Source of the DNA: Escherichia coli | GTDB lineage: Bacteria > Pseudomonadota > Gammaproteobacteria > Enterobacterales > Enterobacteriaceae | Direction: 5' to 3' (one strand) | Assembly: GCF_013122565.1 (NCBI RefSeq) | Contig: NZ_CP053258.1 | DNA: 64,000 bases | Shown: one piece after another, positions 1-11,537 of the stretch | Position numbering within the stretch: the first letter of the stretch is position 1 | How the letters are laid out: every line of letters starts with the position of its first letter | Program-made: the position numbers and the translations under genes | The notes under the pieces: model-generated | The model's database searches: none | What the model was told of the DNA's origin: nothing | What the model saw: the letters and a program-made list of their open reading frames with translations, nothing else

Positions 1-294
1 TATCTGAATCAGCTTTCAGCGCAGGGCATTCGCGTGGTCGGCATGAACTATAAAGACGATCGCCAGAAGGCAATCAGCTGGCTGAAAGAGCTGGGCAATC
101 CTTACGCGCTAAGCCTGTTTGATGGCGACGGCATGTTAGGGCTGGATCTCGGTGTCTATGGCGCGCCAGAAACGTTCCTTATTGACGGCAACGGCATCAT
201 TCGCTATCGCCATGCGGGCGATCTCAATCCTCGCGTCTGGGAAGAAGAGATCAAGCCGCTGTGGGAGAAATACAGTAAGGAGGCCGCACAATGA
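1..294 (+). CDS. ccmG: Thiol:disulfide interchange protein CcmG/DsbE, C-terminal part (5' end lies outside the window)
   Basis: Reading frame is open from base 1; translation (…LIDGNGIIRYRHAGDLNPRVWEEEI…) matches the CcmG/DsbE thioredoxin-fold C-terminus; the stop overlaps the ccmH start (ATGA at 291-294). Confidence 0.8.
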   Translation, partial: YLNQLSAQGIRVVGMNYKDDRQKAISWLKELGNPYALSLFDGDGMLGLDLGVYGAPETFLIDGNGIIRYRHAGDLNPRVWEEEIKPLWEKYSKEAAQ

Positions 295-1343
295 GGTTTT
301 TATTGGGCGTGCTGATGCTGATGATCTCCGGCTCAGCGCTGGCGACCATCGACGTGTTGCAGTTTAAAGATGAAGCACAGGAACAACAGTTCCGTCAGCT
401 CACTGAAGAACTGCGCTGCCCGAAATGCCAGAACAACAGCATTGCCGATTCCAACTCGATGATTGCCACCGACCTGCGCCAGAAAGTGTATGAACTGATG
501 CAGGAAGGTAAAAGTAAAAAAGAGATTGTCGATTATATGGTGGCGCGTTACGGCAACTTCGTCACTTACGATCCGCCGTTAACGCCGCTGACCGTATTGC
601 TGTGGGTGCTGCCAGTAGTGGCTATTGGCATTGGCGGTTGGGTCATATACGCCCGCTCGCGGCGTCGGGTACGCGTGGTGCCGGAAGCGTTTCCTGAACA
701 AAGCGTGCTGGAAGGTAAGCGTGCCGGATATGTTGTTTATCTGCCGGGTATTGTGGTGGCGTTAATTGTGGCTGGCGTCAGCTACTACCAGACTGGCAAT
801 TATCAGCAGGTGAAAATCTGGCAGCAGGCCACGGCACAGGCTCCGGCGTTGCTGGACAGGGCGCTGGATCCGAAAGCTGATCCGCTCAACGAAGAAGAGA
901 TGTCGCGCCTTGCGCTGGGGATGCGTACTCAACTGCAAAAAAATCCGGGAGATATAGACGGCTGGATTATGTTGGGCCGCGTTGGCATGGCGCTGGGTAA
1001 CGCCAGTATTGCCACCGATGCATACGCTACTGCATATCGCCTCGATCCGAAGAACAGTGATGCTGCACTGGGTTACGCTGAAGCGTTGACACGTTCATCT
1101 GATCCCAACGACAACCGCCTGGGGGGTGAACTACTACGCCAGTTGGTGAGAACGGACCATAGCAATATCCGTGTGTTAAGCATGTATGCGTTTAATGCCT
1201 TTGAGCAGCAGCGATTTGGCGAAGCCGTTGCCGCGTGGGAGATGATGTTGAAACTCTTACCTGCCAACGATACTCGCCGTGCTGTGATTGAACGTAGTAT
1301 CGCGCAGGCGATGCAACATTTGTCGCCGCAGGAGAGTAAATAA
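291..1343 (+). CDS. ccmH: Cytochrome c-type biogenesis protein CcmH (fused CcmH/CcmI type, 350 aa)
   Basis: 350-aa ORF with signal peptide, an LRCPKCQN heme-handling motif, a transmembrane segment and a TPR-like C-terminal domain; position after ccmG. Confidence 0.9.
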   Translation: MRFLLGVLMLMISGSALATIDVLQFKDEAQEQQFRQLTEELRCPKCQNNSIADSNSMIATDLRQKVYELMQEGKSKKEIVDYMVARYGNFVTYDPPLTPLTVLLWVLPVVAIGIGGWVIYARSRRRVRVVPEAFPEQSVLEGKRAGYVVYLPGIVVALIVAGVSYYQTGNYQQVKIWQQATAQAPALLDRALDPKADPLNEEEMSRLALGMRTQLQKNPGDIDGWIMLGRVGMALGNASIATDAYATAYRLDPKNSDAALGYAEALTRSSDPNDNRLGGELLRQLVRTDHSNIRVLSMYAFNAFEQQRFGEAVAAWEMMLKLLPANDTRRAVIERSIAQAMQHLSPQESK

Positions 1344-1347
1344 AAAG

Positions 1348-1380
1348 TGGCCCGATGGTGATTCCATCGGGCTATTTTTA
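1348..1380. terminator. Putative bidirectional intrinsic terminator between the convergent ccmH and narP genes
   Basis: GC-rich hairpin (cccgatgg…ccatcggg) followed by a T-rich run, immediately after the ccmH stop. Confidence 0.5.
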
Positions 1381-2025
1381 TTGTGCCCCGCGTTGTTGCA
1401 GGAACAGAATGGTGGCCGCCACGCGTGAGCGGACATTGAGTTTACGCAGCAGATTGCGAATATGTACTTTTACTGTCTGCTCGGAAATATTCAACACCGA
1501 GGCAATTTGTTTATTTGACAGCCCCTGTGCCAGCTCGTGCAGAACATCCAGCTCGCGCTCCGTCAGCACGCTGAAGGGATCTTCTTCCGCGCCAAACATT
1601 TCACGTTCACGCAAGTACTGATTGACGCGTTCGCTAAAGACTTTGCTGCCTTTCGCTCCGGCACGAATCGCTTCCAGCAACACTTCCGGGTCGCTGTCTT
1701 TCAACAGATAACCGTCTGCGCCTGCGTCTATCAGCGCAAAGACATCGCTGGAGGCATCTGATACGGTCAGGATAATAATTTGCGCGGTAACGCCATCCCT
1801 GCGCAAGGCATTGAGGGTATCCAGGCCACTCATACCTTTCATATTGAGATCCAGCAAGATCACGTCGATATCCAGTCTATTCGCCAGATCGATAGCACTC
1901 GCGCCGTCGCCTGCTTCGGCGACCACTTCAAAGCCAGGATCAAGCTCCAGTAACTGACGAACACCGCGTCGCATAAGTGGATGATCATCCACAATCATCA
2001 CCTGAAAAGGCGTTGCTTCAGGCAT
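1378..2025 (-). CDS. narP: Nitrate/nitrite response regulator NarP (NarL/FixJ family)
   Basis: Translation starts MPEATPFQVMIVDDHPLMRRGV…; receiver domain plus LuxR-type HTH; start trimmed to the internal ATG giving 215 aa. Confidence 0.9.
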   Translation of the reverse strand: MPEATPFQVMIVDDHPLMRRGVRQLLELDPGFEVVAEAGDGASAIDLANRLDIDVILLDLNMKGMSGLDTLNALRRDGVTAQIIILTVSDASSDVFALIDAGADGYLLKDSDPEVLLEAIRAGAKGSKVFSERVNQYLREREMFGAEEDPFSVLTERELDVLHELAQGLSNKQIASVLNISEQTVKVHIRNLLRKLNVRSRVAATILFLQQRGAQ

Positions 2026-2344
2026 AGTAGTCTCCTGAGGTTTTATTAGAATCATTATGTTTGAGCGTAGCGTTGGTAACGCTACCAGGCGCGTGAATGT
2101 TACCCCATTTTATGTATGGACATGTAGTGAAAACTACAACCTTGTCGTTCGCTTCGGCATCATTTTCATTATAAAGACGGAATTTTGCATCAGCTTCTCA
2201 TCAAGAAAAACACCTAAAAAATCAATCACAATACTTGTGCATTTCTTTAAACAGTTTTTAAAAACTGACTCCGGGTATGGAGCTATGGGTATTTTCCGTA
2301 CCCAATGCTTTTAACAGCAATTAATTTCATAGGATGAAAGCTCA

Positions 2345-4936
2345 ATGCATCAATCTGGTTCTGTTTCTCTTTGTCGTTCCGCAATATCTGTTCTGGTGGC
2401 TACAGCGTTATATTCACCCATAGCATTGGCATCAACAGTTGAGTATGGTGAGACAGTTGATGGTGTTGTCCTGGAAAAAGATATCCAGCTGGTTTATGGG
2501 ACCGCCAATAATACGAAAATCAATCCTGGCGGAGAACAGCATATTAAAGAATTTGGTATAAGTAGTAATACTGAAATTAACGGCGGGTATCAGTACATTG
2601 AAATGAATGGCACCGCAGAATACTCCGTATTAAATGATGGTTATCAAATTGTTCAAATGGGTGGCGCGGCAAACCAGACTACCCTCAATAATGGTGTGCT
2701 ACAGGTTTATGGCGCAGCGAATGATCCCACGATTAAAGGCGGGCGCTTAATCGTTGAAAAAGATGGGATTACCGTCCTTGCCGCTATCGAAAAGGGAGGA
2801 TTACTGGAGGTTAAAGAGGGGGGGTTAGCGATTGCGGTAGATCAGAAAGCCGGCGGTGCTATTAAAACAACCACGCGGGCCATGGAGGTATTCGGAACAA
2901 ACCGTCTCGGTCAGTTCGATATCAAGAATGGTATTGCTAACAATATGCTGTTGGAAAACGGCGGAAGTTTGCGAGTTGAAGAAAATGACTTCGCTTATAA
3001 TACTACTGTAGATAGTGGCGGCTTACTGGAGGTTATGGATGGCGGGACTGCAACTGGCGTTGATAAAAAAGCAGGCGGAAAATTAATTGTCTCAACGAAT
3101 GCGCTGGAAGTGAGTGGTACAAACAGTAAAGGCCAATTTAGTATAAAAGATGGTGTGTCAAAAAATTATGAACTGGACGATGGTTCCGGGCTCATTGTTA
3201 TGGAGGACACGCAGGCCATTGATACTATCCTTGATGAGCATGCCACTATGCAATCGCTGGGAAAGGATACTGGTACGAGAGTGCAGGCAAATGCGGTATA
3301 TGATCTGGGTCGATCAGATCAGAATGGAAGTATCACGTATTCCTCTAAAGCCATCTCTGAAAATATGGTTATCAACAATGGCCGCGCTAATGTCTGGGCA
3401 GGCACAATGGTTAACGTTTCAGTCAGAGGGAATGATGGCATTCTTGAGGTCATGAAGCCGCAAATAAATTATGCACCCGCTATGTTGGTGGGTAGTGTCG
3501 TGGTTTCTGAGGGCGCTTCTTTAAGAACGCATGGTGCCGTGGATACCAGCAAAGCGGATGTTTCGCTCGAAAATAGCTCATGGACCATCATTGCCGATAT
3601 CACTACGACGAACCAAAACACCCGCCTCAATTTAGCCAACCTTGCGATGTCTGGCGCAAATGTGATTATGATGGATGAGCCAGTGACTCGTTCATCTGTG
3701 ACGGCAAGTGCGGAAAATTTCACTACGTTGACCACCAATACCCTGTCGGGAAACGGCAATTTTTATATGCGTACCGATATGGCTAATCATCAGAGCGATC
3801 AGCTCAACGTCACCGGACAGGCAACAGGTGATTTCAAAATATTCGTGACGGACACCGGTGCCAGCCCGGCAGCAGGAGATAGCCTTACACTGGTAACAAC
3901 GGGCGGCGGTGATGCTGCATTTACGTTGGGCAATGCCGGAGGCGTTGTTGATATCGGTACGTATGAATATACCTTGCTGGATAATGGCAATCATAGCTGG
4001 AGTCTGGCAGAGAATCGCGCGCAAATTACCCCTTCAACCACTGATGTGCTAAATATGGCGGCAGCACAACCGCTGGTATTTGATGCAGAACTGGACACCG
4101 TGCGTGAGCGTCTTGGTAGCGTAAAAGGCGTTAGTTACGATACGGCGATGTGGAGTTCGGCAATTAACACCCGCAACAACGTGACCACTGATGCGGGCGC
4201 TGGTTTTGAGCAAACATTGACGGGCCTGACGCTCGGTATCGATAGCCGTTTCTCCCGTGAAGAAAGCAGTACAATTCGCGGCTTGTTCTTTGGTTACTCT
4301 CATTCTGATATTGGTTTTGATCGCGGCGGCAAAGGCAATGTCGATAGCTATACCCTGGGTGCTTATGCCGGTTGGGAGCATCAGAACGGTGCCTATGTTG
4401 ATGGGGTGGTGAAAGTTGACCGTTTTGCCAACACCATCCATGGCAAGATGAGTAATGGGGCAACAGCGTTTGGCGATTACAATAGTAACGGCGCGGGTGC
4501 TCATGTTGAGAGCGGGTTCCGTTGGGTTGACGGATTGTGGAGTGTTAGACCCTATCTGGCCTTTACCGGCTTTACCACAGATGGTCAGGACTACACGTTA
4601 TCAAACGGCATGCGCGCGGACGTGGGAAATACCCGGATATTACGCGCTGAAGCGGGAACGGCGGTAAGCTATCACATGGACCTGCAAAACGGTACGACGC
4701 TGGAACCCTGGCTGAAAGCCGCCGTGCGTCAGGAATACGCCGATTCTAACCAGGTGAAAGTTAATGACGATGGCAAATTTAATAATGATGTGGCTGGAAC
4801 CAGTGGCGTTTATCAGGCTGGGATAAGGTCATCGTTTACCCCGACGTTAAGCGGTCATTTGTCAGTCAGCTATGGCAATGGCGCAGGGGTAGAATCACCG
4901 TGGAATACTCAGGCGGGTGTGGTCTGGTCGTTCTGA
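2345..4936 (+). CDS. yejO: Adhesin-like autotransporter (type Va secretion), apparently intact, 863 aa
   Basis: N-terminal signal peptide, repetitive Gly/Thr/Asn-rich passenger region, C-terminal beta-barrel translocator ending in …AGVVWSF; located next to tRNA-Pro and narP. Confidence 0.8.
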   Translation: MHQSGSVSLCRSAISVLVATALYSPIALASTVEYGETVDGVVLEKDIQLVYGTANNTKINPGGEQHIKEFGISSNTEINGGYQYIEMNGTAEYSVLNDGYQIVQMGGAANQTTLNNGVLQVYGAANDPTIKGGRLIVEKDGITVLAAIEKGGLLEVKEGGLAIAVDQKAGGAIKTTTRAMEVFGTNRLGQFDIKNGIANNMLLENGGSLRVEENDFAYNTTVDSGGLLEVMDGGTATGVDKKAGGKLIVSTNALEVSGTNSKGQFSIKDGVSKNYELDDGSGLIVMEDTQAIDTILDEHATMQSLGKDTGTRVQANAVYDLGRSDQNGSITYSSKAISENMVINNGRANVWAGTMVNVSVRGNDGILEVMKPQINYAPAMLVGSVVVSEGASLRTHGAVDTSKADVSLENSSWTIIADITTTNQNTRLNLANLAMSGANVIMMDEPVTRSSVTASAENFTTLTTNTLSGNGNFYMRTDMANHQSDQLNVTGQATGDFKIFVTDTGASPAAGDSLTLVTTGGGDAAFTLGNAGGVVDIGTYEYTLLDNGNHSWSLAENRAQITPSTTDVLNMAAAQPLVFDAELDTVRERLGSVKGVSYDTAMWSSAINTRNNVTTDAGAGFEQTLTGLTLGIDSRFSREESSTIRGLFFGYSHSDIGFDRGGKGNVDSYTLGAYAGWEHQNGAYVDGVVKVDRFANTIHGKMSNGATAFGDYNSNGAGAHVESGFRWVDGLWSVRPYLAFTGFTTDGQDYTLSNGMRADVGNTRILRAEAGTAVSYHMDLQNGTTLEPWLKAAVRQEYADSNQVKVNDDGKFNNDVAGTSGVYQAGIRSSFTPTLSGHLSVSYGNGAGVESPWNTQAGVVWSF

Positions 4937-5037: not shown

Positions 5038-5114
5038 TGGTCGGCACGAGAGGATTTGAACCTCCGACCCCCGACACCCCATGACGGTGCGCTACCAGGC
5101 TGCGCTACGTGCCG
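5038..5114 (-). tRNA. proL: tRNA-Pro
   Basis: 77-nt sequence on the minus strand reading CGGCACGTAGCGCAGCCTGGTAGCGCACCGTCATGGGGTGTCGGGGGTCGGAGGTTCAAATCCTCTCGTGCCGACCA, with a paired acceptor stem, T-loop GGTTCAAATCC and encoded CCA. Confidence 0.85.
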
Positions 5115-7377: not shown

Positions 7378-8385
7378 ATGAGTCTGGATATCAACCAGAT
7401 TGCTCTGCACCAGCTTATCAAGCGTGATGAGCAGAACCTTGAGCTGGTGTTGCGCGATTCATTGCTGGAACCGACAGAAACCGTCGTTGAGATGGTGGCA
7501 GAACTGCATCGGGTCTATAGCGCCAAAAATAAAGCTTACGGCTTGTTTAGCGAAGAGAGTGAACTGGCGCAGACGCTGCGCTTACAGCGTCAGGGCGAAG
7601 AGGACTTTCTGGCATTTAGCCGCGCGGCAACCGGTCGCCTGCGTGACGAATTAGCGAAATATCCTTTTGCTGACGGTGGATTCGTGCTGTTTTGCCACTA
7701 CCGTTATCTGGCGGTGGAGTATCTGCTGGTGGCAGTCCTGAGCAACCTGAGCAGTATGCGCGTTAACGAAAATCTCGACATCAACCCAACCCATTATCTT
7801 GATATCAATCATGCGGATATTGTTGCGCGTATCGATTTAACCGAATGGGAAACCAATCCAGAGTCGACCCGCTATCTCACTTTCCTGAAAGGGCGAGTAG
7901 GGCGCAAAGTGGCGGATTTCTTTATGGATTTCCTCGGGGCCAGCGAAGGGTTAAACGCGAAAGCGCAAAACCGTGGGCTGTTGCAAGCGGTTGATGATTT
8001 CACTGCCGAAGCACAACTGGATAAAGCAGAGCGACAGAACGTGCGCCAGCAGGTTTATAGCTACTGTAATGAGCAGCTGCAGGCAGGCGAAGAGATTGAA
8101 CTGGAGTCGCTGTCGAAAGAGCTGGCAGGCGTCAGCGAAGTGAGCTTCACGGAGTTTGCGGCTGAAAAAGGCTACGAACTGGAAGAGAGCTTCCCGGCAG
8201 ACCGTAGCACACTGCGTCAGTTGACGAAGTTTGCCGGTAGCGGCGGTGGCTTGACTATTAACTTTGATGCGATGCTGTTAGGTGAACGCATCTTCTGGGA
8301 TCCGGCGACCGATACCCTGACCATTAAAGGCACGCCGCCGAATTTGCGCGACCAATTGCAGCGCCGGACGTCTGGTGGGAACTAA
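7378..8385 (+). CDS. yejK: Nucleoid-associated protein YejK (NdpA)
   Basis: 335-aa ORF ([19 protein letters not shown]…), conserved gene order. Confidence 0.9.
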
Positions 8386-8765
8386 ATCTCCAACGCGAAT
8401 GTTTCTTTTCGGAGAAACAGTTGCGGGATAATCACAATTCTTGTCAATCAGTTAGTGAGATGACTTGCTGATTGACCTTTCATTCGAAAATGTTTTCTCT
8501 GTTATTATACTTAGTGTTACTGAAAATATTATTCTCTTATCCCCTTTATTCGATAATAAATCGGTCTGGTCACTATTTCCGCCGTTTTTTGTGAGCTGTA
8601 ACACTGGAAAAATCATTCTGTTTAATTATATTGAGTTTACTTGGCGTTATATGTTGTTATTTGCTTTGACTATATAAAATGCAAATGTATTCTTAATGTC
8701 AATATTATTGTCGTTATGTTTGACTCATTATATTAATCGTATGAATAGTTTTAAGGATTCACCGC

Positions 8766-9338
8766 ATGGAGCAAGAAAATCCTGAAGATAGAAAGTGTTG
8801 TCGACCGAAAAAAACGTTCTCTTTAACCAGAAAATTACTGGTATGTTTTATCTTTACCCTCATTGTATTCAGTGGTTGTTTATTTGTCGTTATGAACACG
8901 GTCATTCATAACACCAGCACTGACAGCTTTTGCCTGGGTTGTCATGAAATGAAAGACAACATCCTTACCGAGAGTTTCAAAAAATCCATTCATGGCAGTA
9001 ATCGTACTGGCGTGAAAGTCGCTTGTGCCGATTGCCATATTCCTGATGAATTTGTCCCTAAGATGATCAGAAAAGCCCACGCCGTTAAAGAGGTTTGGGG
9101 GCATATGACAGGCGTAATTGATACGGCCGATAAATTCGATGCACATCGTGGCGAAATGGCAAAAGCGGAATGGGCAAGAATGAAAGCAAACAATTCGCAG
9201 GAATGCAGAGACTGCCACGATATTTCTAAATTACAGAAAAAATTTATGGCGCCGTTCCATGAGGCTTCTCTTAAAGAAGGGAAAACATGCATTGATTGTC
9301 ATGCCGGCATTGCACATAAATTACCAGCAGTTCATTAG
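8766..9338 (+). CDS. NapC/NirT/CymA-family membrane-anchored tetraheme cytochrome c (putative quinol dehydrogenase)
   Basis: 190-aa ORF with an N-terminal transmembrane helix and four CxxCH heme-binding motifs (CLGCH, CADCH, CRDCH, CIDCH); AAGGA Shine-Dalgarno sequence 8 nt upstream; AT-rich codon usage. Confidence 0.85.
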   Translation: MEQENPEDRKCCRPKKTFSLTRKLLVCFIFTLIVFSGCLFVVMNTVIHNTSTDSFCLGCHEMKDNILTESFKKSIHGSNRTGVKVACADCHIPDEFVPKMIRKAHAVKEVWGHMTGVIDTADKFDAHRGEMAKAEWARMKANNSQECRDCHDISKLQKKFMAPFHEASLKEGKTCIDCHAGIAHKLPAVH

Positions 9339-9431
9339 TCATTAATACATGAATGTCATGTCTGTCTGGTTTCAAATAAAAACAAGAAGGGTTTCATGTT
9401 GATTTAAGTTTTTATGTAAAAGGACCATGTT

Positions 9432-11072
9432 ATGAGGAAACTAAAAAGGGGATTCTTATTGGCTGGGGTATTAACGGCACTTTCTCTAAGCGCTTATGCT
9501 GACAGAAATATGAATAAGATCCCGCATATCAATCTGTCGAATCCATCCGTCGAACCAGTTAGTGAGAGAATAATCCAAACAGATATTGTTGTTATTGGCG
9601 GTGGGCTTTCTGGCATGTCCGCAGGGTTGACTGCAGTACAGGGCGGAGCCAAAGTTGTTATTTTTGAAAAACTACCAAGCCTTGGAGGGGCAGGCGTTTA
9701 TCCTGAAGGCAGTTTAGGCATTGGCACCCTTATGCAAAAAAAAGAGGGGAAAGGTGCCACGCTGAATCAAGCCTTTGGTAAGGCGATCGATTTCCATCAC
9801 TGGCGAGCCAATGCTAGTGCATTGCACGCATTAATGAAAAACTCAGGCGAAACCATTGATTGGGTTGCCAGTAATGGCGTTGAGTTTACGACCTTAAAAA
9901 CCACCATTTATCCTCAGTCAGATTCATTATGGACCTGGCATATGTATAAGCATAATGGTGCATCTGTTACTAAAAGCTTTTACAAGAAGATCCTTGATGG
10001 AGGTGGGCAAATCTACACCGAAACTCCTGTTAAGAAGATTCTTCGCGACAAACAAAGCGGTGATGTCGTTGGCGTCGAAGCGGTTAATAGCGTAACAGGG
10101 GAAAAAATCATTGCCTATGGTAAGGGTGTGATTGTGGCGACCGGTGGTTTTGCCAACAACCGTGACATGATTGAAAAATACATCACCGATGTGAATCAGA
10201 AAAACATGGTGCCGGTCAAACTACGTGGCCCCCTGATTGATGGACGCGAAGGCGATGGTATCAAAATGGGGCAAGACATTGGCGCTGATACTGCCGGGAT
10301 GCAAACCATTGCTGGCAATAGCCCATATGTCGATCAAGACCCTCCTATCCGTCAGTTTAATGGCGCGGATTACCAAAAACAGGCCAGAACGTCATTAAGC
10401 CAGCCATTCCTGTGGATTAACCGACAAGGCGAGCGTTTCTTTGATGAGTCACTCGGTTCCAGTTTTACCCTCGTTTATAACGCTATCACCATGAATGGCG
10501 GAGTCATGTATTCTGTCTGGGATGATGCAATGCGCCAGAAGATGGTTAACGAAGGGCCGGTTACACCGTTTAACGCCATCGTGTTGCCTGGGCAGCCGAT
10601 GAAGGCGCTGGATCAGGCGATCGAAATCGGCATGAAAGAAGGGTGGTTATTTAAAGGTGAAACGTTGGACGATCTGGCAAAACAGATCAATGTTCCTGCA
10701 GACAATCTGAAAGCGACGATTGCGAAAGTAAACAAGTATACGGATGAAGGTTTCGATCCTGACTGGGGGCGCAAGAAAGAGCATCTGTTTAAATTTCAGG
10801 ATAAAGGACCGTATTACGCCGTGAAAGGTATTCGGGCTTATTTCCTGACGCTGGGTGGTTTGAAAATGAACAGCGATCTGCAGGTCTACGATACCAATGA
10901 GAAGATTATCCCAGGTCTGTATGTTGTCGGGCAGGATATGGGCGGTCTGTATGACAGCTCCTATGATTTGGTACTTGAAGGATCGGCTTCTGGCTTTGCG
11001 TTGACGTCGGGACGTATGGCAGCGAAACATATTATAAGCACCAGAGTGCAGGCACAGGGAGGAGGCAAATGA
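9432..11072 (+). CDS. Periplasmic FAD-dependent flavoprotein reductase, fumarate-reductase/flavocytochrome-c family (substrate unknown)
   Basis: 546-aa ORF; signal peptide MRKLKRGFLLAGVLTALSLSAYA; dinucleotide-binding fold VVIGGGLSGMSAG; C-terminal FAD-binding motif of the FrdA/SdhA family (…GLYVVGQDMGG…); its stop overlaps the next start (ATGA). Confidence 0.85.
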   Translation: MRKLKRGFLLAGVLTALSLSAYADRNMNKIPHINLSNPSVEPVSERIIQTDIVVIGGGLSGMSAGLTAVQGGAKVVIFEKLPSLGGAGVYPEGSLGIGTLMQKKEGKGATLNQAFGKAIDFHHWRANASALHALMKNSGETIDWVASNGVEFTTLKTTIYPQSDSLWTWHMYKHNGASVTKSFYKKILDGGGQIYTETPVKKILRDKQSGDVVGVEAVNSVTGEKIIAYGKGVIVATGGFANNRDMIEKYITDVNQKNMVPVKLRGPLIDGREGDGIKMGQDIGADTAGMQTIAGNSPYVDQDPPIRQFNGADYQKQARTSLSQPFLWINRQGERFFDESLGSSFTLVYNAITMNGGVMYSVWDDAMRQKMVNEGPVTPFNAIVLPGQPMKALDQAIEIGMKEGWLFKGETLDDLAKQINVPADNLKATIAKVNKYTDEGFDPDWGRKKEHLFKFQDKGPYYAVKGIRAYFLTLGGLKMNSDLQVYDTNEKIIPGLYVVGQDMGGLYDSSYDLVLEGSASGFALTSGRMAAKHIISTRVQAQGGGK

Positions 11073-11479
11073 GTAAGCTATTGAAGAACATTGTCACAAT
11101 CATTCTTGCTGGCGTAATGTGCACCGTTATCGGTATGGTTTCTGCCAGTGCACAAGAGATTGTCGGCATGAAAATGCACAAGACCATTGGTCTGGAATGT
11201 AATAACTGCCATGTTGATGATGTTAAAGCCAACAAGAATATGACGCCAACGTGCGTTAGCTGCCATGCGCCTGGTGAGCGTTATTATCATGGTAAGAAGG
11301 ATTCAGAAGGTAACTCAGTGTTAAAAGAGTATCCGGAGTCGGGTAAAACACGAGTTGCGTCTTTCCATGACTCTCATGGCGGGGAAATTCGCTGTACGGT
11401 ATGCCATACGTCACATGAGAAGGAACCACAGCCACTCTATTGCAACAACTGCCATCAGTTTGATGTGAAGATTAAGTAG
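11069..11479 (+). CDS. Small periplasmic tetraheme cytochrome c
   Basis: 136-aa ORF with N-terminal signal/anchor and four CxxCH motifs (CNNCH, CVSCH, CTVCH, CNNCH); strong GGAGG ribosome-binding site; translationally coupled to the flavoprotein gene. Confidence 0.8.
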   Translation: MSKLLKNIVTIILAGVMCTVIGMVSASAQEIVGMKMHKTIGLECNNCHVDDVKANKNMTPTCVSCHAPGERYYHGKKDSEGNSVLKEYPESGKTRVASFHDSHGGEIRCTVCHTSHEKEPQPLYCNNCHQFDVKIK

Positions 11480-11504
11480 TGAAGGTATTTGTCAGTCGCT
11501 GAAA

Positions 11505-11537
11505 AAGAAAACGGCCCGTAAAGGCCGTTTTCTTTTG
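11505..11537. terminator. Bidirectional intrinsic terminator between the cytochrome gene (+) and rplY (-)
   Basis: Hairpin aaacggcc-cgtaaa-ggccgttt flanked by an A-rich stretch upstream and a T-rich stretch downstream. Confidence 0.65.

Follow-up and report, generated by a model that had tools for sequence, protein, structure and literature searches.

A putative split flavocytochrome c module with a Sec-type flavin subunit at a rare Escherichia coli locus

This study concerns a flavoprotein gene and the small cassette which carries it on contig NZ_CP053258.1 of Escherichia coli (assembly GCF_013122565.1); the window is the whole stretch of 64,000 nucleotides of this contig that was analysed. 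The cassette comprises 3,147 bp (8386–11532) and stands in place of 115 bp of the yejK–rplY intergenic region of E. coli KW21, to which homology ends at 8385 and restarts at 11533. Its GC content is 31–48% compared with about 52% in the flanks. The cassette holds three genes, all of them co-oriented on the plus strand and tightly packed. The first gene (8766–9338) codes for a membrane-anchored tetrahaem cytochrome c of the NapC/NirT family (Pfam Cytochrom_NNT, PF03264, E = 5.5e-57) with 190 amino acids (aa), one N-terminal transmembrane helix and four CxxCH motifs (CLGCH, CADCH, CRDCH and CIDCH). The second gene (9432–11072) codes for the flavoprotein, a flavin adenine dinucleotide (FAD) subunit of 546 aa. 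The third gene (11069–11479), whose start overlaps the stop of the flavoprotein gene (ATGA), codes for a periplasmic tetrahaem cytochrome c of 136 aa with four CxxCH motifs and a signal peptide for general secretion (Sec) ending in VSASA/QE (Pfam Cytochrom_c3_2, PF14537, E = 1e-12). The original prediction, which was confined to the flavoprotein gene, left out both flanking multihaem cytochrome genes; it is these which define the system.

The open reading frame of the flavoprotein is real. A ribosome-binding AGGA is present 7 nt 5′ of the ATG, and the translation, with the N-terminus MRKLKRGFLLAGVLTALSLSAYA/DRN and the full opening stretch MRKLKRGFLLAGVLTALSLSAYADRN, is identical to the NCBI protein WP_250880417.1 ("FAD-dependent oxidoreductase [Escherichia coli]"), which is encoded on a 4.82-Mb contig. 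The Pfam domain FAD_binding_2 (PF00890) spans residues 51–511 (E = 1.4e-43). The Rossmann dinucleotide-binding motif GGGLSG is formed by G56–G61 (9597–9614, plus strand), and G56, G58 and G61 are invariant in a family alignment of 73 homologues. A second FAD motif, PGLYVVGQD, is found at residues 494–502. The mature protein had been expected to begin with the Rossmann motif; it opens instead with a 26-residue extension (D24–Q49) ahead of it. This extension (9501–9578) contains the conserved motif DRNMNxxPxINxxNP, which is confined to the closest clade (at least 56% identity). In the AlphaFold2 (AF2) model it is predicted to be disordered, with a predicted local distance difference test score (pLDDT) of about 50, and it may help to dock or tether the cytochrome partner.

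Purifying selection on the gene is strong. In comparison with the orthologues of Escherichia sp. MOD1-EC7003 and Escherichia albertii the ratio of nonsynonymous to synonymous substitution rates (dN/dS) is only 0.016–0.017 at a dS of 0.55–0.80; with Citrobacter no value is obtained as the synonymous sites are saturated. In some E. albertii strains the NCBI entries are fragments of 79–312 aa which suggest occasional pseudogenisation.

The AF2 model of the flavoprotein is of good overall quality (pLDDT 87.6, predicted template modelling score 0.87) and points to a two-domain fold with a FAD domain and a capping domain like that of the solved PF00890 members. The best match among the solved structures is the urocanate reductase UrdA (6t85–6t88), both by Foldseek (template modelling (TM) score 0.72, E = 4e-39) and by sequence (E = 8.2e-36, about 26% identity). 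Foldseek also matches the Fcc3 fumarate reductases as well as 3-ketosteroid dehydrogenases (KstD) and cyclohexanone dehydrogenases, the latter two with TM scores of 0.69–0.71. The structural neighbours in AFDB50 carry generic names only. Among the curated NCBIfam families the best is the vinylphenol reductase VprA, on which the flavoprotein scores 311.7 bits with a cut-off of 600. VprA is also the top curated family for every relative tested (294–364 bits, about half the cut-off). The models for KstD and ChcC are matched too, and the "flavocytochrome c" model TIGR01813 gives 172.8 bits, below its cut-off of 285.45. The view that this is an exported, FAD-dependent flavoprotein of the reductase type is thus upheld, and neither the curated families nor the solved structures nor the AFDB neighbours contain a close characterised enzyme which would make it a described one.

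The nature of the system becomes apparent from the small cytochrome. Its best match in the PDB is the N-terminal haem domain (residues 14–88) of the Shewanella flavocytochrome c3 Ifc3 (1qo8, E = 1.1e-6). The flavoprotein and the 136-aa cytochrome together thus appear to be a flavocytochrome c3 divided over two genes. The Fcc3 and Ifc3 fumarate reductases (1qjd, 1qo8) have the same flavin-domain fold (Foldseek E about 1e-36), and their N-terminal haem domain corresponds to the downstream cytochrome; they are, however, single fused polypeptides with only 21–25% identity to the flavoprotein. We suggest that the cassette codes for a respiratory module of the ArdAB or Mrd–Mcc type, in which the flavocytochrome c is split, as it has the adjacent and co-oriented gene for a tetrahaem cytochrome with a Sec signal and an export signal on the flavin subunit. 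The acrylate reductase ArdAB of Shewanella woodyi (bioRxiv 10.1101/2024.02.11.579808) likewise consists of a PF00890 FAD subunit and a separate tetrahaem cytochrome c in the periplasm. It binds FAD non-covalently and is the terminal reductase of an anaerobic chain, and we propose the same for the system described here. But the ard genes adjoin dddY, which codes for the lyase producing the substrate, and the ArdAB operon has no napC gene, whereas the cassette is without such a lyase partner and does carry a gene of the NapC/NirT type. In the methacrylate reductase Mrd/Mcc of Geobacter sulfurreducens AM-1 and in Wolinella succinogenes (FccA and its haem subunit) the flavin and cytochrome c subunits are also encoded in one operon, and these subunits are co-inherited and horizontally mobile (PMC4427408).

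With regard to the membrane-anchored cytochrome we note that it scores 206.7 bits on NCBIfam TIGR02161, under the cut-off of 310.6, and is thus not NapC, NirT or TorC proper. A structure-database search gave no solved structure for this NapC-like cytochrome at E ≤ 0.001. From its family membership we infer that the protein is a quinol dehydrogenase. Simon et al. reportedly described in 1998 a NapC/NirT-type gene, fccC, in the fcc operon of W. succinogenes, which would equal the same three-part architecture.

The pairing with a cytochrome is not restricted to Escherichia. We scanned one genome per species and found 30 loci. A four-haem gene for a protein of roughly 130–145 aa lies immediately downstream in all 15 homologues which bear a signal peptide and in none of the 10 without a signal. 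The pair was also seen in the further contexts of Budvicia, a JGI contig, a metagenome-assembled genome (MAG) of the Deferribacterales and Oryzomonas. The NapC-type gene joins the pair only in Escherichia, Citrobacter and Budvicia. Exported, cytochrome-paired relatives are present in Deferribacterales, Seleniivibrio, Geomonas, Oryzomonas, Telmatospirillum and Xanthobacteraceae; the gut Sutterellaceae Parasutterella and Turicimonas hold relatives with 44–47% identity, and many deltaproteobacterial MAGs carry cytoplasmic stand-alone relatives. Regulator genes near the homologues are of the Crp/Fnr type (upstream in Oryzomonas and the Deferribacterales MAG) or code for AraC (Desulfobacter). A FAD_binding_9 gene of the siderophore-interacting-protein type is located upstream in Brenneria corticis and two genes upstream in Budvicia.

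How does the flavoprotein reach the periplasm? The signal peptide (residues 1–23; 9432–9500, plus strand) consists of the n-region MRKLKR, the h-region GFLLAGVLTALSLS and the c-region AYA, followed by D24. The headline of the original prediction was an atypical Lys-Arg signal for twin-arginine translocation (Tat), according to which the flavoprotein would fold and bind FAD in the cytoplasm and would then be exported through a variant of the Tat motif. Indeed KRGFLL looks like RRxFLK, a natural KR signal is known from TtrB of Salmonella, and KR substitutions keep partial Tat activity. Furthermore, the characterised haem-less flavocytochrome flavin subunits all have Tat signals (PMC4427408 Table 1; ArdA, bioRxiv 10.1101/2024.02.11.579808), and a distant relative (P0112, 48% identity) bears a genuine Tat signal with RRSFLK, NRRSFLKGAAALGAV, which is 49 aa long and has a hydrophobicity of 1.55. 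The flavoprotein itself, however, reads L-K-R-G-F-L-L where the Tat consensus is S/T-R-R-x-F-L-K and thus lacks the arginine pair. In its orthologues the pair is H-R in E. albertii (98% aa identity), Q-K and therefore without arginine in Escherichia sp. MOD1-EC7003 (98%), Q-R in Citrobacter sp. Cu233 (93%) and R-K followed by G-L-L-L in Budvicia aquatica (84%). Among the best 120 database matches 36 bear a signal, and 34 of these are without an RR pair (the two with RR are P0013 and P0015). The signal is short, 23 aa as against 34–55 aa with RR in the characterised flavin subunits (PMC4427408 Table 1). The peak Kyte–Doolittle hydrophobicity of the h-region (2.47 over 10 residues) is within the range of a small Sec set (1.9–2.8) and above that of a Tat set (1.6–2.2), in what is a rough test. 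Finally, the c-region AYA is uncharged and has no basic "Sec-avoidance" residue. Because the pair varies between orthologues and the signal is short and of Sec-like hydrophobicity, the resemblance to a Tat signal appears to be due to chance and the peptide to be an ordinary Sec signal. We regard Tat export as quite unlikely.

Of the two export options that had been considered for the flavoprotein, Sec with loading of the flavin in the periplasm is thus favoured over Tat. This is the accepted route for Shewanella FccA and UrdA; FccA depends on Bfe, of which YeeO of E. coli is a homologue. Bfe exports FAD to the periplasm of Shewanella (PMC3551548). Fcc3 and Ifc3 are likewise Sec-exported and acquire FAD outside the cytoplasm, as we propose for the flavoprotein. 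The flavinylation named in the original prediction is, if taken in the covalent sense, not supported: residues 79–98, which we take to be equivalent to the R-S-H-T segment of FrdA with its FAD-linked histidine (8α-histidyl FAD), behind the first β-α-β unit, contain no histidine, and Pfam finds only domains of the FAD_binding_2 type and no FMN_bind domain (PF04205). On these grounds FAD is expected to be bound non-covalently. UrdA, too, is a haem-less periplasmic FAD enzyme exported by Sec (PMC4427408 Table 1), but it takes up its electrons through a covalently flavinylated FMN_bind domain, whereas the flavoprotein is paired with a cytochrome subunit.

The active site was compared using the family alignment together with Fcc3 and UrdA. 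Of the residues which are important in Fcc3, H365 is replaced by D303 (Glu or Asp in the family), M375 by D313 (mostly Asp), the proton donor R402 by S343 (Ser in 71 of 73 sequences), H504 by F471 (73 of 73) and R544 by Y511 (73 of 73); only R381 is kept, as R319. The Sutterellaceae relatives keep an arginine at position 343. These conclusions are independent of gap placement because the flavoprotein has no arginine at all in residues 336–366 and 500–527. UrdA retains both active-site arginines. ArdA and Mrd keep the proton-donor arginine as well as the histidine and arginine which bind the C4-carboxylate (bioRxiv 10.1101/2024.02.11.579808; PMC4427408); in Mrd and in FccA of W. succinogenes, whose RR Tat signals are 34–55 aa long, His461, Arg501 and Arg353 are conserved, and the flavoprotein with its 23-aa Sec-type signal has none of them and carries S343, F471 and Y511 in place of the ArdA residues. 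Since the residues kept in these enzymes are replaced here, the flavoprotein would be neither a fumarate reductase nor an enoate reductase like ArdA or Mrd. The enoate acceptors that had been envisaged for it are too narrow a choice: every residue which forms the carboxylate clamp or donates the proton in the reductases of fumarate, urocanate, acrylate and methacrylate is replaced here.

The nearest characterised relative is instead VprA of Lactiplantibacillus plantarum (NCBIfam NF053717; PMC10295242) with 28% identity. As a control we used an L. plantarum plasmid protein encoded beside a LysR regulator, which scores 783.8 bits on the VprA model. It shares with the flavoprotein the T-W-H motif (W169, H170), D313, F345, N350, F471 and Y511; it, too, has no arginine at the R402 position, and the additional segment 372–392 of the capping domain is present in both. 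The F/Y signature is a match of sequence. VprA is, however, cytoplasmic and stands alone with its LysR regulator and without a cytochrome partner, whereas the flavoprotein is predicted to be exported and is paired. Moreover, R125, R265, R272, H451, R468, D508, D512 and E516 are invariant in the family and have no counterpart in VprA, Fcc3 or UrdA. Extracytosolic PF00890 reductases without the two classical arginines have also been described in the Gram-positive Eggerthella and Holdemania (CirA, CirC and CrdD; Little et al., bioRxiv 10.1101/2022.12.26.521950). In these enzymes a tyrosine at the position equivalent to R544 is essential, together with a glutamate in CirC, and the flavoprotein has Y511 at this position.

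We suggest that the three genes form an anaerobic respiratory module which works in the reductive direction and in which the Sec-exported flavoprotein is the catalytic FAD subunit, and we consider this reading probable. The electron path is modelled on ArdAB, Mrd/Mcc and the Shewanella flavocytochromes (for a general description of the latter see bioRxiv 10.64898/2026.04.22.720169). Menaquinol or demethylmenaquinol would be oxidised at the periplasmic face of the membrane by the anchored NapC/NirT-type tetrahaem cytochrome. The next carrier would be the small soluble tetrahaem cytochrome c, which corresponds in detached form to the haem domain of the Shewanella flavocytochrome c3, and from it the electrons would go on to the non-covalently bound FAD of the flavoprotein. 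Finally, the reduced flavin would give a hydride to a C=C bond in an organic acceptor of the periplasm. The flavoprotein itself would cross the membrane unfolded, lose its 23-residue signal by cleavage after AYA and take up FAD in the periplasm.

As to the acceptor, the replaced residues indicate that it is not fumarate, and a simple 2-enoate bound through the His/Arg carboxylate clamp of the classical enzymes is improbable as well. Y511 could polarise an oxygen substituent of the substrate, be it phenolic, carbonyl or carboxyl, and so activate the double bond, like the equivalent tyrosine of the 3-ketosteroid dehydrogenases. A double bond activated by an oxygen of the phenolic or carbonyl type is therefore our tentative proposal for the substrate class, and it is the weakest part of the argument. 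More doubtful still is the further idea that in this cassette a VprA-like, arginine-free active site is for the first time coupled to cytochrome c for respiration, with a haem-less flavin subunit which is exported by Sec, takes up FAD outside the cytoplasm and reduces a non-classical periplasmic alkene, for example by converting vinylphenols to ethylphenols.

The same fold and the same tyrosine could also be found in an enzyme of the opposite direction, a periplasmic desaturase resembling KstD or cyclohexanone dehydrogenase which feeds the quinone pool through the cytochromes. The TM scores to these dehydrogenases are as good as those to the reductases, the KstD and ChcC models are matched, and the tyrosine at the R544 position is reminiscent of dehydrogenases, as with Tyr487 of KstD. 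Yet cytochromes of the NapC/NirT type and tetrahaem cytochromes of the c3 type normally pass the electrons of quinol on to reductases in the periplasm, and the low potentials of their haems make the reduction of quinone unfavourable. All characterised pairs of a flavin subunit and a tetrahaem cytochrome are reductases, and so is VprA (PMC10295242). An oxidative role thus appears improbable. Even less do we expect an enzyme which simply reduces fumarate in the periplasm or some other 2-enoate reductase of the classical kind. Automatic names in JGI and UniProt such as "fumarate reductase flavoprotein subunit" suggest this assignment, and fold and haem partner are as in Fcc3, but H365, R402, H504 and R544, the four residues for binding and catalysis of fumarate, are replaced throughout the family, and the TIGR01813 score falls short of its cut-off. 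In addition, E. coli already possesses FrdABCD; a fumarate reductase is thus very unlikely. That the signal peptide is an annotation artefact and translation of a cytoplasmic protein starts at Met27, as the shorter E. albertii gene models at NCBI (520 and 504 aa) and the many genuinely cytoplasmic homologues with 50–55% identity might imply, is scarcely conceivable, since the full-length reading frame and the signal are intact in every Enterobacterales orthologue, a good ribosome-binding site precedes Met1, an N-terminal hydrophobic segment is found in 36 of the 120 listed homologues, and the signal co-varies with the exported cytochrome partner (15 of 15 against 0 of 10). We note that these E. 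albertii models start 3′ of the signal peptide and would wrongly predict a cytoplasmic protein.

Several observations nevertheless weigh against a Sec-exported anaerobic respiratory reductase. The characterised haem-less flavin subunits Mrd, ArdA and W. succinogenes FccA all use Tat, so that a Sec signal would be a departure. The homologue of Brenneria corticis (locus L006, 7001–8551; 53% identical) bears a signal without an adjacent cytochrome gene and is the sole exception seen to the co-occurrence of signal and cytochrome. In the seven gene contexts inspected there is no conserved lyase, transporter or regulator, and hence the neighbours give no clue to the substrate. The invariant arginines R125, R265, R272 and R468 could bind a carboxylate from another direction. 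Finally, anaerobic control lacks support from the sequence as no FNR box (TTGAT-N4-ATCAA, up to two mismatches) is present in the region upstream of the first gene (8386–8765); the window-wide count of this motif is at chance level.

This 5′ region of the cassette is AT-rich and poorly conserved (66% identical) between E. coli, Escherichia sp. MOD1-EC7003, E. albertii and Citrobacter. Against this background all four keep two blocks unchanged. The first consists of GTCAATCA at 8443–8450 and its inverted partner TGATTGAC at 8469–8476; the second is TTTGTGA..TG.AACAC with the core TGTGAGCTGTAACAC at 8590–8604, which is like a half-site of the CRP type. Both blocks are possible regulator sites. 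A terminator-like hairpin AAAACGGCC-CGTAAA-GGCCGTTTT followed by a run of T is found on the plus strand (11508–11536) at the 3′ border of the cassette, where it faces the rplY end. It was read by eye and a consensus terminator scan did not list it.

The cassette is very rare in E. coli. It was not found in 5,426 complete RefSeq E. coli genomes, neither by megablast nor by sensitive blastn, and the search of plasmids gave no homologue above 30% identity. In the present genome the flanks of the cassette are 99.2% identical to E. coli, and the same yejK–rplY site is occupied by the cassette in Escherichia sp. MOD1-EC7003, E. albertii and Citrobacter sp. Cu233. Because the insertion site is shared with the relatives, while the flanks are those of E. 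coli and the E. coli genomes searched are without it, it looks as if the cassette was ancestral to this group and was then lost from nearly all E. coli, or was regained here by homologous recombination. The DNA of the cassette (9432–11479) is about 90% identical to that of Escherichia sp. MOD1-EC7003 and the flanking core genes are 95–98% identical. The cassette diverges more than its flanks and therefore has a history unlike that of the surrounding chromosome. The literature search found no paper on this gene cluster in E. albertii or E. coli.

The machinery for the maturation of both c-type cytochromes is encoded nearby: ccmH (291–1343, plus strand), with which the operon for cytochrome c maturation ends, is located about 7 kb upstream of the cassette, as is narP (1378–2055, minus strand). 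Between these genes and the cassette the autotransporter gene yejO (2345–4936, plus strand) is intact with 863 aa; the KW21 copy has an internal stop and is listed as a pseudogene. As in reference E. coli, a gene for tRNA-Pro(GGG) (5038–5114, minus strand) is placed between yejO and yejM.

As a type of architecture, split flavocytochromes c have been familiar for decades, and for the time being the flavoprotein adds one uncharacterised protein to a very large superfamily of reductases. What appears to be new is that a haem-less flavin subunit bears a Sec signal in place of the Tat signal and that a VprA-like, arginine-free catalytic subunit is tied to a cytochrome c chain. New is also an accessory locus which is near-unique in E. 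coli and yet conserved in E. albertii and the cryptic clades. If these proposals are true, the split architecture extends beyond the carboxylate-clamping enoate reductases, and a haem-less FAD subunit can mature via Sec, which bears on the supply of FAD to periplasmic enzymes of enterobacteria.

If the module is an active respiratory reductase, it adds a further terminal electron acceptor to Escherichia. The cassette is kept under strong selection in E. albertii and the cryptic clades and is missing from nearly all E. coli; it may thus be a niche-defining trait and offers a genetic contrast between these groups. Were the proposed alkene respiration to take place, the hosts respiring such a compound would be E. 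albertii, the cryptic Escherichia clades, rare E. coli, Citrobacter and Budvicia. Vinylphenols derive from plant hydroxycinnamates, and if the substrate is vinylphenol-like, enterobacterial respiration would be linked to the production of ethylphenols in the gut.

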